NCBI GenBank assembly: GCA_964016885.1
Contig: OZ024740.1
Span: forward strand, 183,582,001 to 183,646,000
From: Eledone cirrhosa
Taxonomy: Eukaryota
Direction of reading: 5' to 3'
DNA length: 64,000 bases
Shown here: positions 4,196 through 55,602 of the stretch, one piece after another
Position numbering within the stretch: position 1 is the first letter of the stretch
How the letters are laid out: every line of letters starts with the position of its first letter
The notes under the pieces: generated by a model
What the model saw: the letters and a program-made list of their open reading frames with translations, nothing else
What the model was told of the DNA's origin: nothing
Databases searched by the model: none
Program-made: the position numbers and the translations under genes

Positions 4196-5397
4196 GTGTG
4201 AAGAGCAAGTAGTCAGCTCATATCGAACTCTGTATATGCCGTTGTCCCATTGAGATTCTGAGTCTCCAAATCTGTGAATGCAAGCAACCGTCATGTAGGC
4301 CACCAAGGGGCTCTGTGTAGGGTTGGGTATTTGAGTTAAGGTGTCAGTATGTGCGTTTTCGCGTCATATGGGCCCTTGGGATTTTACGTTTGAGTGGTGG
4401 AGGTGTGTTACCCAACACAGAAATAAAAATAAAATAAAATATAATAAAATAAAAAAGAATAGCAAAACCCGTTGGATGTGTGTAAGTAGTATAGTCCAAT
4501 CAGTAACCGTGAGCACTCCAATGTTAGATGATCACGGATCAAAACCTAGTGCAGTGTTCAATTGATAGGATCGTGACCAATCATAACTGTGGGAACTCCG
4601 TGTCTAAAGAAACCGGGTACTGTGTGTAGAGTTATGTATAAAGAGCGTAATCGGTCTTAACTGAGTGTGTAATACGTCTAACTATTTACTAACCGAGAGA
4701 ACTCAATGGTTAGGGCATTCTAAAGTAATGGTGAATGCGCGTAATTTGGTTTTAACTGAGTGTGTAATCATTCTAACTATTTACTAACTAGGTATTCCAA
4801 AGTAGTGATAAATGTGCACTCAGCTGTGACAACTCTGTTGAAGCAAACCGACTACCGTTTGTAAGTGCGCAAACGATCTTAGCTATTTACTACCTGAGTG
4901 TGTGATTGTCTGTTTTTTGCTAATTGAAAGAACTCTATGGCTAAGGTAAAAAGCGGATTCAACAAGATGAAGATATAATAGATGTAATCATCTTGTTGAA
5001 TCCGCTTATGGCTTGGCATTTAGCAGAGATGCTTAACAACCCCAGCATGCACCTCTTTGTTCGCCATCTCCAATCTCCCTTTTTTTTGTGGAGCTTATAC
5101 TCAACACTGTATTTATTAGGCTCCGAGGAACCCTGCCAAAAGGTGAGGATGAACAAGTGTAAGAAAATAAAGACTGTTTGAGTATGTAAGCATTCCTTGG
5201 TTTCTTTTGCACACACATATATATATATATATATATATATATATATAAATGCTCTGAAATAGCGATATATATGTGAATATAGACATAGAATATTCGAAAA
5301 TATTCTGTATGTTTATAATAAACATTTTGAAGACCTAATCGCTATAGAATAGAATACGTCACGTATTACAATTAGATTCTCGATAAAAGAAAGGGAA

Positions 5398-5440
5398 GTA
5401 ATCTACGCGTTTCATTCTTGTTAGAATTCATCAGGACTAC
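5398..5440 (-). ncRNA. Minimal type I hammerhead ribozyme (also 5708-5750, 6018-6060, 6328-6370, 6638-6680; truncated copy 6948-6982)
   Basis: GUAGUC-CUGAUGA-AUUCU aaca AGAAU-GAAAC gc GUA-GAUUAC: intact core, stems I and II, palindromic ACGCGU stem III. Confidence 0.92.
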
Positions 5441-7233
5441 ATATCCAGTGCTTTTATCGAGAATGACACAGCTAGAGACTTATAGAATACTTAGCTGTGT
5501 ACAGGAACTGGTTTGAAAGAGCGGTTGCCGGTCCGGCAGAAATTAGAAATTGGAATAAATGCTCTGAAATAGCGATATATATGTGAATATAGACATAGAA
5601 TATTCGAAAATATTCTGTATGTTTATAATAAACATTTTGAAGACCTAATCGCTATAGAATAGAATACGTCACGTATTACAATTAGATTCTCGATAAAAGA
5701 AAGGGAAGTAATCTACGCGTTTCATTCTTGTTAGAATTCATCAGGACTACATATCCAGTGCTTTTATCGAGAATGACACAGCTAGAGACTTATAGAATAC
5801 TTAGCTGTGTACAGGAACTGGTTTGAAAGAGCGGTTGCCGGTCCGGCAGAAATTAGAAATTGGAATAAATGCTCTGAAATAGCGATATATATGTGAATAT
5901 AGACATAGAATATTCGAAAATATTCTGTATGTTTATAATAAACATTTTGAAGACCTAATCGCTATAGAATAGAATACGTCACGTATTACAATTAGATTCT
6001 CGATAAAAGAAAGGGAAGTAATCTACGCGTTTCATTCTTGTTAGAATTCATCAGGACTACATATCCAGTGCTTTTATCGAGAATGACACAGCTAGAGACT
6101 TATAGAATACTTAGCTGTGTACAGGAACTGGTTTGAAAGAGCGGTTGCCGGTCCGGCAGAAATTAGAAATTGGAATAAATGCTCTGAAATAGCGATATAT
6201 ATGTGAATATAGACATAGAATATTCGAAAATATTCTGTATGTTTATAATAAACATTTTGAAGACCTAATCGCTATAGAATAGAATACGTCACGTATTACA
6301 ATTAGATTCTCGATAAAAGAAAGGGAAGTAATCTACGCGTTTCATTCTTGTTAGAATTCATCAGGACTACATATCCAGTGCTTTTATCGAGAATGACACA
6401 GCTAGAGACTTATAGAATACTTAGCTGTGTACAGGAACTGGTTTGAAAGAGCGGTTGCCGGTCCGGCAGAAATTAGAAATTGGAATAAATGCTCTGAAAT
6501 AGCGATATATATGTGAATATAGACATAGAATATTCGAAAATATTCTGTATGTTTATAATAAACATTTTGAAGACCTAATCGCTATAGAATAGAATACGTC
6601 ACGTATTACAATTAGATTCTCGATAAAAGAAAGGGAAGTAATCTACGCGTTTCATTCTTGTTAGAATTCATCAGGACTACATATCCAGTGCTTTTATCGA
6701 GAATGACACAGCTAGAGACTTATAGAATACTTAGCTGTGTACAGGAACTGGTTTGAAAGAGCGGTTGCCGGTCCGGCAGAAATTAGAAATTGGAATAAAT
6801 GCTCTGAAATAGCGATATATATGTGAATATAGACATAGAATATTCGAAAATATTCTGTATGTTTATAATAAACATTTTGAAGACCTAATCGCTATAGAAT
6901 AGAATACGTCACGTATTACAATTAGATTCTCGATAAAAGAAAGGGAAGTAATCTACGCGTTTCATTCTTGTTAGAATTCATCGAGAATCTAATTGTAATA
7001 CGTGACGTATTCTATTCTATAGCGATTAGGTCTTCAAAATGTTTATTATAAACATACAGAATATTTTCGAATATTCTATGTCTATATTCACATATATATC
7101 GCTATTTCAGAGCATTTATTCCAATTTCTAATTTCTGCCGGACCGGCAACCGCTCTTTCAAACCAGTTCCTGTACACAGCTAAGTATTCTATAAGTCTCT
7201 AGCTGTGTCATTCTCGATAAAAGCACTGGATAT

Positions 7234-7276
7234 GTAGTCCTGATGAATTCTAACAAGAATGAAACGCGTAGATTAC
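7234..7276 (+). ncRNA. Minimal type I hammerhead ribozyme in the inverted arm of the 310-bp array
   Basis: gtagtc ctgatga attct aaca agaat gaaac gc gta gattac read directly on +. Confidence 0.92.
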
Positions 7277-52599: not shown

Positions 52600-54200
52600 G
52601 TGATAATATGTAGTCTGAATAATAATCAATAAATCTTTCATAGAGATTAACAAATCTGAGAAAAGATTATAATTGCTCCTTGTTCCTTGGCAGTTTTACA
52701 TCCAGAAATCTCACTAGTAGGGTGATATCTCCTACGAACAATAATTCATCAGTCTCTAACACATATTTAGTTTCACTGATCACCATGCCTGATAATTCCA
52801 AACTTTTTATGATTGTATCTACCTTGATATGCAGATTTTCAGTGGCTTTAGCACCAATACATATATCATCTTGATAAGTAATACCATTATTTCCAACATT
52901 TTCAATAGCTCTCTGAAACATAGCCCTTTCTGTTTTAATTTTACACTGAAGGCATGCCCATCTTAAAAGATTCATTTGTGTATATGTCATAGCAAAATCT
53001 ATTGTATCAGAATACATTTATATATGACATATGATAACTTTATAGAAAATTAATCAAAATAATTCATGCCAGAAACAGAATGGAATATCTAGATAAAAAG
53101 CTGAAAAAAAAAAAAAAATATTATTGATACAATCTTTATAATCTCCATATATTCTGAAATCTCCAAAGGAGAAGTATACTTACACTTGCCATGGGGAACT
53201 TCTAAAGGATATTTGCTAATTGGTTTCCACAATTTTTCTATGACGAATTTGAGCATTTGGTCAGGTTAGGCTTTTGCCTGCTACTGGTACCATGTAACGC
53301 AGTACAATCTGCTTCATGATGGTGTGCTCAGCAACTAAACAATCTCCCCAACAAGACCTTGTTGAATTCTAGTAGCACAAAAAACAAGAGCTGTTAAAGA
53401 GTGGATTAATTCCTCCATCAACAGCCAGCCATCCCAACTATCAGTTAAATAGTCTCACCAACCCATAATTGGCAAAGTATGGTGAATACTGCTACACCCC
53501 TGACATGACCAAAACCAAACAGAAAGCCATGTAGGTCAACCATGAGTGAAAAGGTCCTGGATTGAATTAGATTCAATTTGAATATTAGTCATGGTCTCCC
53601 ACGAAAATAACATTCTCGAATTTCTTTTGAGACAAATGTTAGCCCTGAAAGCTCTTAATCTTCCAAATTGTCCTGAAGCTTCAATATAATGTATTAATGT
53701 TGATCTATCAATATTCATCACGTTCATACCAAGCAAGTTATGATTTTCGTTGTTTTTTAATTAAGCAACACTAACATTTCTCTATTCTTTAACCAGTTTC
53801 CATTAATGCATCAAATTTCCCCAATATTTTCAATGCATGATCCATAAAATTGTTTTACACTTTCTTGATTTCGGTTTATTCAAATCCATCTGGAAATTCT
53901 TAGGTATTACCTCGGTGCCAATGTTAATTTGCATCTTAACAGTAACATTATTGATTTTCACAGCAATTATTGTGTTATTTTTCAGGCCAATTTCATAAAT
54001 ACTTGCCAAATCTTCATTTTCAATTCCTTTGAATTCCTTAACCTCTTTATTTCTTTATAGATTTTGCCATAAATGATTATCATTTCCACATTTAATACAA
54101 TTTTTACCAAATTGAAGACATATTCATGGTGAATATTTATACCCACAAAAGTGACGTTTATATTAAAGTTTTAATATATCTTTATCAACATGAAACACAG
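52600..54200 (-). pseudogene. Decayed Ty3/gypsy-like gag-pol remnant
   Basis: AMFQRAIEN..ITYQDDICIGA (YxDD), FRIYGDYK..IN, protease-like VKINNVTVKMQINIG, knuckle-like CIKCGNDNH. Confidence 0.72.
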
Positions 54201-55252
54201 AGAGGTAGAAGATGAATAAGATAGTTGAATAACATCCATGAGATCAGCTGGCCTGACTTGGGGATCTTGTTGGATCAATTAGAGACAGTTGTTTCTGACA
54301 GGATCCGCTAGTAGGAGTATTGGTGAACCCATAGCCCTCACAGGAATAAGTGGGCGAAGAAGAAGGATTTAAAATACACATAGTAAAGAAAATGGAAAGC
54401 AAGCTTAGCTATGATCTACATGTGTAGTTTAGTACTGTTAAAATAATTAATATATATTAATTCACATTGAACCACTATTTTCCGATAGTTGACAGTAGAT
54501 TTGTATTTTCAAATAGAAGCGGTTTCTTTCATGTCAAGTATTCTCTTCTTTTTTTTTATGATGAAGGTGATGTCGATATTACAACATTTCCCCAGTTATT
54601 TTCCGACATTTCTGTTACACACATACATACATCGATCTATGTATATAAAAAATAGGTTTGGTCACCAAAATACCCTGTGGTGTATATTTTGTTTGAGATA
54701 ATATCTCTTTAGACCATGGAGAACTCAACAAATTAATATATTATTTTAAGGTCCCATAACTCCTAGCAAAGTCGTAGGTGTGCCATATTGGCATACAGCC
54801 TTTCTAGATAATTTTTTAAACATGGCAGAGCCCATCCACTCTCTTGTTCTAAATATAACAGATTTCTTCCATAGAAGGATAGAGAATGAGAAAAAGGAAA
54901 TGAGTAAGAGATATAAAGCAAGAATGGGCTCCATGTATTAGATTAGAATTTTTTCATCAACCTCGAATGGATGAAAGGCAAAATTGACATTGAAAGGATT
55001 TGAACTGAGAAAGTAGGGAGCCAAAACAAATGTCACAGAGCATTCTATATGATTTTCTAACAACTCTACCAATTCATTACTTACAATTAATATATAGTTA
55101 TACATAAAATAAGCACTAGTCAAAGTGTTAGTGGAAGGATAAATATATATATTCTTTTAGGTGATAACCTAGCATGGCCACAATCTAAAGACTGCAACAA
55201 ATAAATAGTACAGAGAATACATGTGTGTGTGTGTATATATATATATATATAA

Positions 55253-55602
55253 GCAAAGGGATATTTAATTTGTTGGTAATTCAACAAATATATTAATAAC
55301 AGATTTGAAGCGCTCGACAAGTTTTCTGAAGTATATATCAATAACATTAATAAATGGAAACTATATTTATAAAACCATATTTGTTCTATTATATATATTT
55401 CAAGGGTAGCATAACTTTGGTACGCTCTCATCAGATAAAATACAAAGTTTGTTTTATAAATAGTGACATGTCCAGGAATCAGACCTTAACGGTTCAACGG
55501 AACTTGAACCGTTAAGGTCTGATTCCTGGGTATGTCACTATTTATAAAACACACTTTGTATTTTATCTGATGAGAGCGTACCAAAGTATTAATATCATTG
55601 AT
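55253..55602. mobile_element. Fold-back HHR element, family D (diverged)
   Basis: Arms around aacggttcaacggaacttgaaccgtt (~55488-55513); tcatcag at ~55428 and ctgatga at ~55567. Confidence 0.8.

Follow-up and report, generated by a model that had tools for sequence, protein, structure and literature searches.

Here we analyse a stretch of 64,000 nucleotides from Eledone cirrhosa (GCA_964016885.1, contig OZ024740.1, positions 183,582,001 to 183,646,000 of the forward strand; hereafter the window), in which eleven intervals contain pairs of inverted arms that belong to Penelope-like elements (PLEs) or to non-coding retrozymes carrying a hammerhead ribozyme. In all eleven, as was claimed in the original prediction, the arm on the minus strand lies on the left and the arm on the plus strand on the right, with the two arms joined at their 5' ends and their 3' ends pointing outward. 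The arms were called by self-BLAST together with reading of the sequence, and their polarity was set by the strand of the hammerhead and, for the protein-coding families PLE-A to PLE-D, also by the open reading frame (ORF) that comes after or before the same sequence in longer copies. The 3' end of an arm takes one of two forms, a short one (S) or a long one with an extra tail (L), and the presence of one short and one long end in nearly every insert suggests that both broken DNA ends copy the same RNA. The arms in the window are as follows, where pLTR denotes the pseudo-long terminal repeat and RT reverse transcriptase.

5245..6982, minus strand: left arm of F1 retrozyme, 5.6 units of a 310-bp tandem with five minimal type I hammerheads, L end at 5245
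6980..7401, plus strand: right arm of F1, 1.4 units, hammerhead 7240-7270, S end; 3-nt microhomology ATC at 6980-6982
7484..7555, minus strand: PLE-B (Hydra-like) pLTR stub, S end; linked to an ORF in longer copies
7549..7710, plus strand: PLE-B pLTR stub with 90-nt tail, L end
10944..11427, minus strand: PLE-C (Hydra-like) pLTR arm, S end; linked to an ORF in longer copies
11422..11946, plus strand: PLE-C pLTR arm with 68-nt tail, L end; hammerhead core CTGATGA at 11818
15603..15835, minus strand: PLE-D (Hydra-like) arm, L end; hammerhead 15775-15727; inner boundary approximate
15895..16043, plus strand: PLE-D arm, S end; inner boundary approximate
16259..17215, minus strand: left arm of F5 retrozyme, a 470-bp F5a unit (hammerhead 16589-16559, L end) fused at TAAGCGTC to F5b
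17207..17614, plus strand: right arm, F5b
18193..18386, minus strand: PLE-D arm, S end
18375..18650, plus strand: PLE-D arm with 87-nt tail, L end; junction at the recurrent family 5' boundary CACTGCC
19205..20679, minus strand: PLE-A (Neptune-like) 5'-truncated inverted copy, L end
20676..24803, plus strand: decayed near-full-length PLE-A copy with pLTR, RT (YSRYVDD), CX4CX2C linker, C-terminal GIY-YIG (YIGET) and hammerhead 24611-24645, S end
24958..25088, minus strand: PLE-D arm reaching scarcely beyond the tail, L end, without hammerhead
25112..25257, plus strand: PLE-D arm, S end, further 5' than the L arm (staggered)
32318..32383, minus strand: PLE-B stub, S end
32380..32548, plus strand: PLE-B stub, L end; degenerate hammerhead core CAGAAGA at 32390
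41370..41423, minus strand: diverged PLE-C-family stub, S-like end
41430..41568, plus strand: diverged PLE-C-family stub, L-like end; 8 nt of TA outside
55253..55500, minus strand: diverged PLE-D-family arm, L end; hammerhead 55434-55390; inner boundary approximate
55490..55602, plus strand: PLE-D-family arm; atypical 3' end within hammerhead stem II

A pure TA run of at least 10 nt, i.e. at least (TA)5, is present at 21 of the 22 outer ends of these loci, the exception being the right end of 41368-41568, where the TA is only 8 nt long; as a background, (TA)4 lies equally near at 748 of 15,396 random positions (4.9%). The expectation that the outer ends adjoin TA repeats is thus borne out. Beyond the window, we used an unselected sample of eight 100-kb blocks (800 kb) at arbitrary positions of the 3.0-Gb genome, chosen regardless of these elements, and a targeted sample of 244 stretches, not de-duplicated (labels such as L134 denote sampled genomic stretches), with family-based mapping replacing an unbiased inverted-repeat scan, which was swamped by satellites. 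In the unselected sample, adjacent inverted arms of the same family, for the six families of the window, are head-to-head in 17 cases and tail-to-tail in none, three tail-to-tail neighbours belonging to different families with TA between them, and TA is found at 43 of 49 typed 3' ends versus 6 of 49 5' ends. Equally frequent tail-to-tail arrangements, or no enrichment of TA, had been named beforehand as the contrary outcome, and neither is seen. In the targeted sample there are 209 head-to-head versus 14 tail-to-tail arrangements, most of the 14 being separate insertions stacked in one TA tract. A control repeat gives, with 70 copies in the same 800 kb, no head-to-head and two tail-to-tail pairs; we take it to be an RTE-like long interspersed nuclear element (LINE), whose 3' part in the window (8560-9760) ends in (GAT)n and then TA. 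One insertion, L035, lies outside TA and has an 11-bp target duplication. For the site at 54900-55960, no piece spanning the empty site was found when reads of 4 of 24 listed runs were aligned.

The distance from S to L is about 35 nt in F1, 54-59 nt in A, 68 nt in C, about 70 nt in F5a, 87-89 nt in D and 90 nt in B. One S and one L end are paired at 9 of 9 typed loci in the window and in 107 of 113 typed pairs outside it, with 11/11 in F1, 10/11 in F5a, 57/59 in the targeted A-D set, 18/19 in a D set picked by its 5' boundary (26 of 30 loci used) and 11/13 in the unselected 800 kb. For A-D, the typed pairs come from 139 de-duplicated loci of 150, 11 duplicate or window loci being dropped; an internal palindrome had given rise to false pairs in L150, L151 and L157, whereas L193 and L301 continue into the ORF, and L301/L302 and L162/L165 were each resolved as a single S+L insertion. 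The 19 F1 stretches comprise 15 two-armed loci, of which four are untypable, three single arms and one left unassigned, while the 18 distinct F5a loci include 14 two-armed ones, three of them atypical. It is noted that some of the queries used for typing selected L arms; the matches found S-first have L partners equally regularly.

The S+L pairs fall by geometry into 28 staggered, 31 symmetric and 15 nested ones. When L193, L195 and L132 are dropped as unsafe, 25 staggered pairs are left, in each of which the 5' extent of the S arm exceeds that of the L arm by more than 15 nt; four staggered pairs (L297, L309, L315 and L338) do not overlap at all, and the window loci 19205 and 24958 are also staggered. 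Since in staggered arms neither contains the other, neither can be a fold-back copy and both come from RNA. The original prediction had spoken of fold-back insertions; the head-to-head inverted arms are indeed present at all eleven loci, and the name itself is a misnomer for the staggered ones. Symmetric junctions cluster at fixed family boundaries (about -163 in B, about -164 in C and the motif CACTGCC in D), and the same boundaries serve as the 5' ends of arms whose partner stops elsewhere. In D, two adjacent positions in CACTGCC are preceded by a base foreign to the family in 65 + 68 genome matches, and 29 of the 30 matches inspected are true truncations, from which we infer that the RNA 5' end lies at this boundary. 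A cap-derived G at the D boundary (G in 32/65) is not claimed, the +1 control being also G-rich and many of the Gs being templated by the partner arm. Hammerhead cleavage as the general 5' boundary was likewise rejected, as it is seen only in two PLE-A arms (L276, L280).

Junction microhomology was counted in F1 and F5a only, the older families being confounded by private substitutions. In these young families, microhomology of 1-6 nt is present at 19 of 19 filler-free junctions, the other junctions having short fillers, and random joins of the A-D references lack microhomology in 58% of cases. In D, nearby sequence served as the source of some fillers (L197, L199), a pattern that resembles theta-mediated joining. 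The two arms of one locus also share variants: the minor-allele concordance between them is 20/29 in A, 24/47 in B, 20/27 in C and 30/44 in D (51-74%) versus 7-14% between loci, staggered loci such as L278 and L306 being included, and in F1 each unit, in either arm, carries variants private to the locus (247T>C in L041; 258/259 in L043). Such sharing could also come from conversion between arms or from a single active donor.

Judged from their sequence, nine of the eleven loci are truncated ends of four protein-coding PLE families, one Neptune-like and three Hydra-like, because the PLE-B, PLE-C and PLE-D stubs adjoin a PLE ORF in longer genomic copies, with the ORF start downstream and the endonuclease end upstream (L220, L226, L192, L193, L211, L355, L356). 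Family B comprises the loci at 7486 and 32317, C those at 10944 and 41368, and D those at 15603, 18192, 24958 and 55253. The RT and the C-terminal GIY-YIG are in one ORF in A (window 22413-24400, frameshifted), B (L220, L224), C (L226) and D (L355), and pLTR or tail sequence lies on both sides of the ORF in the A window copy, in B L220, in C L226 and L356 and in D L192, L193, L211 and L355. Pfam matches to these ORFs are weak, below the gathering cut-offs; Atlas neighbours of the PLE-C protein carry RVT_1, HTH_animal and GIY-YIG. The placement in clades rests on motifs: B, C and D have RWR, DKT and a CxCX5C linker (CNCRNWVGC / CNCLNKEAC / CNCRDRSKC), and PLE-A has CIDKKCITC (CX4CX2C) as linker, then YIGET, and RYVDD in the RT. 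When the C and D translations were inspected by eye, no CCHH endonuclease motif was evident. As ends of protein-coding PLEs, these nine loci are therefore cis products. The original prediction of a single trans-acting PLE system that mobilises small non-coding ribozyme RNAs does not hold where four distinct coding families account for nine loci, nor does its implied reading of B, C and D (F2, F3 and F4) as non-coding retrozymes. Its description of the six families as unrelated is right for the non-coding DNA, where only F5a/F5b and the hammerhead cores align, and wrong for the proteins of B, C and D, which are 37-53% identical. Besides these families, another PLE-like ORF pair with YIGQT (L226:771-4378), 94-98% identical to copies in two sampled blocks, represents a separate young family, and in one PLE-B copy (L150, compared with L146) the stretch running from GTAAGT to TTTGCCAG, retained by other copies, is missing, as though a spliced RNA had been the source of this copy.

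The remaining two loci, F1 and F5, are by their sequence the only non-coding tandem retrozymes among the eleven, fitting non-LTR retrozymes. The F1 unit is 310 bp with up to 19 units in one arm and the F5a unit is 470 bp and low in GC like F1, each unit having one type I hammerhead. In 79 overlapping stretches no PLE ORF continues from F1 or F5a units, the nearby ORF matches being separate insertions, and a PLE partner for F1 or F5 chosen by sequence was rejected because only hammerhead cores align. The locus at 16258-17614 is composite, its left arm changing from F5a to F5b at the shared octamer TAAGCGTC. Several further observations concern these families. F5a units beside a 78%-identical unit are also seen in L240 and L254; a lone F5a arm (L248:1100-2150) is joined on its 5' side to an inverted copy of its downstream flank; and an F5a array of mixed 470-bp and 432-bp units (L246, L261-L264; G000:C3:77328780-77334824) would not come from a single monomer circle without later rearrangement. 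Diverged F1-like tandem units of 72-78% identity (L120:5860-7420, L058:6100-6720) have the same inverted layout, and the F1 lineage is therefore old and diverse. For the F1 unit at window 7093-7395, 0.69-0.96 of the sampled words occur in runs under 18 organism labels, from which we draw no inference.

Type I hammerhead motifs are present in all six families, in agreement with what had been stated for them, the core of B being degenerate (CAGAAGA, read by eye) and the left arm of 24958-25259 having none. A strict scanner gives 28 cores in 864 kb versus 0 in the shuffle, with 11 in the 64-kb window versus 17 in the 800 kb sampled, so that these elements are more closely packed in the window than in the blocks sampled. 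The scanner finds the hammerheads of A and D and misses those of C and F5b, which were read by eye and by folding. The Rfam HH9 model gives sub-threshold matches in F1 and F5a only; Rfam microRNA-model matches on TA repeats were rejected as noise. The helices of D covary, five pairs being changed on both sides, with a covariation score reached in 1/500 shuffles (related sequences, hand-drawn structure). The B, C and F5b hammerheads share a U-U mismatch at the base of helix II, which has also been described for HHR_Amex2 of the axolotl (PMC7229834; this source and those cited below are represented here by parts of their text).

Based on these data, we propose that four coding PLE families and two non-coding hammerhead tandem families were inserted head-to-head, with both strands of (TA)n cut by a PLE protein and with S and L as fixed priming sites, one for each 3' end and probably both on a single RNA. 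We give this model a probability of roughly two in three; shown directly are the architecture, the targeting of TA, the identities of the families, the rule of one S and one L end, the staggering of arms, the shared variants and the microhomology junctions. In the model, after the PLE protein has cut both strands, one 3'-OH would prime at S and the other at L, both copying towards the RNA 5' end, with both primers presumably on the same RNA molecule. The L-primed copy would trail and displace the S-primed copy, giving overlapping inverted arms, while an L-primed copy that stops early would give staggered or non-overlapping arms, and a near-perfect palindrome would result if both copies extend as far as one common RNA 5' boundary. 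Host end-joining would then fuse the two cDNAs at their 3' ends, and for the F1 and F5 arrays PLE enzymes would act in trans, on RNA that is multimeric or circular. The twin priming at a (TA)n break with joining of two cDNAs that had originally been suggested thus gains support from the staggered and non-overlapping arms, the S+L ends and the 1-6 nt microhomology.

Some of the data weigh against this model. There are at least two distinct direct tail-to-tail joints (L144, L205), and single arms are common. Roughly half of the pairs have a symmetric or nested geometry that, taken alone, is compatible with fold-back. At the D boundary S occurs alone 10 times versus L once (counting the duplicate L336), and this bias towards S arriving first is borderline after correction for the shorter path of S (p ~0.05). 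Six pairs break the S+L rule (L249, L285, L313, L352, C9 block 23602 and C12 block 5318), and in two of the six the arms are nearly identical, so that arm homogenisation or true fold-back can occur. The junction in L134 (G000:C9:8720697-8723856) joins two different families, a PLE-A arm and a PLE-B arm, each with an L end, lying head-to-head with a palindromic templated filler and no TA between them; either two different ribonucleoproteins (RNPs) acted at one break, or a later insertion was accompanied by deletion.

It could alternatively be supposed that each subunit or RNP uses one start site on a separate RNA, the arms being alike via a common active donor or later conversion. Overlapping arms then need no strand displacement, two RNAs do sometimes meet at one locus (L313, where the inner arms are homogenised and the tails come from two subfamilies; L134; the F5a/F5b chimera at 16258-17614), and near-identical L+L and S+S loci suggest conversion. 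By itself, however, such a supposition does not explain the strict S+L pairing, the L arms that end at the S site or short of it (L297, L309, L315, L338) or the private variants in all units of both arms of the very young F1 arrays, and we consider it unlikely.

If instead one copy folded on itself and templated the second arm, the 31 symmetric pairs, the many near-perfect palindromes with loops of 0-15 nt, the private variants common to both arms next to the junction (L181, L215, L298, L316) and the rare perfect palindromes of L+L or S+S type would be expected. This self-priming requires nesting, however, which at least 25 staggered and four non-overlapping pairs violate, so that it is refuted as the general mechanism, and the symmetric junctions stand at B, C and D boundaries that are also used by arms with partners stopping elsewhere; we regard it as highly improbable. 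An inversion that postdates insertion, with template switching during replication or the repair of breaks acting on existing single copies in fragile TA tracts, has even less to be said for it: TA tracts are unstable, and the single arm in L248 lies beside an inverted duplication of flanking DNA, but a duplication at the DNA level cannot add a tail to one arm or set the ends at two fixed RNA sites, and the 70 RTE-like copies in the same DNA form no head-to-head pair.

Returning to priming by both 3' ends on one RNA, it can tentatively be extended, at a little under even odds in our estimation, to PLE integration in general as a reaction of two polymerases on one RNA. A dimer would sit on the RNA at two fixed registers about 35-90 nt apart, the double-strand cut offering each subunit one strand as primer, and the polymerase that trails would peel off the leading cDNA; the same machine would circle a single circular retrozyme RNA from both break ends. 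The inverted pLTR and the one-sided tail would then be obligatory, and conserved in the Neptune and Hydra clades and their parasites.

Elsewhere in the window there are more single-arm or interrupted copies of PLE-A and PLE-B and an F1 relic that were absent from the original prediction (7728-8350, 1-1825, 2620-3355, 61000-63770, 58593-58671), and an inverted repeat at 45961-46372 resembles a miniature inverted-repeat transposable element (MITE), with 92-bp arms of 94.6% identity, inner hairpins and no TA flanks.

The natural copies thus provide a countable S+L rule and a geometry that excludes fold-back as the general route, making a poorly understood insertion step testable, and they tie F1 and F5 to PLE enzymes by an insertion footprint rather than by co-occurrence. 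For annotation, such hairpins would be mistaken for MITEs or microRNA loci, while most are truncated retrotransposon ends.

In the twin priming of L1, two target ends prime on one RNA and give an inverted junction with microhomology, the pieces being usually non-overlapping and one primer being poly(T). Here, by contrast, each of the two start sites is internal and fixed, and the arms, in most cases overlapping, form long inverted repeats, the four non-overlapping pairs being alike to the L1 products.

For endonuclease-containing (EN+) PLEs, it has been described that insertions contain an inverted 5'-truncated copy placed head-to-head, with a one-sided tail, (TA)n targeting, a hammerhead in the pLTR and a GIY-YIG at the C terminus (PMC3846280, PMC8557442). 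The layout here is the same, the tails being about 35-90 nt versus the 30-40 nt published, and the pairs, when counted here, follow an S+L rule almost strictly. The head-to-head palindromes were explained by self-priming on antisense RNA (PMC3846280), which the staggered arms contradict as a general route, and the tail was attributed to endonuclease resolution (PMC8557442); the available part of PMC13282606 contains nothing on the head-to-head architecture. The S+L rule or a two-cDNA model for PLEs was not found in the literature searched, and older literature and the supplements of PMC8557442, PMC11167929 and the retrozyme preprint may hold either. The layout, the tail and the TA bias are already published, and the arm geometry, like the pairing rule, was not found in the literature searched. 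The PLE transposition cycle has itself been named as unresolved (PMC8557442, PMC11167929).

Of the Hydra-clade features, namely an RWK-like motif, DKT, a CxCX5C linker and (TA)n targets (PMC8557442), B, C and D have all with RWR in place of RWK, while PLE-A is like the Neptune clade in its CX4CX2C linker, RYVDD and YIGET, the linker motif being also present in Nematis. The metazoan non-LTR retrozymes resemble F1 and F5a as low-GC non-coding tandem units with a type I hammerhead, and their dependence on PLEs was argued from co-occurrence and phylogeny (PMC7229834; bioRxiv 10.64898/2026.07.22.740005), whereas the F1 and F5 arrays here bear the PLE insertion footprint of two arms, S+L ends and TA.

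Finally, with PAc, the Poseidon element of Anolis, target-primed reverse transcription (TPRT) in vitro showed that both strands are nicked and extended at AT-rich targets, with two internal RT start sites matching the tail, a predicted dimer and no need for hammerhead cleavage (PMC11167929). Our twin-priming reading agrees with the both-strand extension, the two start sites and the predicted dimer; in those experiments there was no strand difference in the use of the start sites, and the later steps were left open, whereas the genomic copies here use each site once per event.

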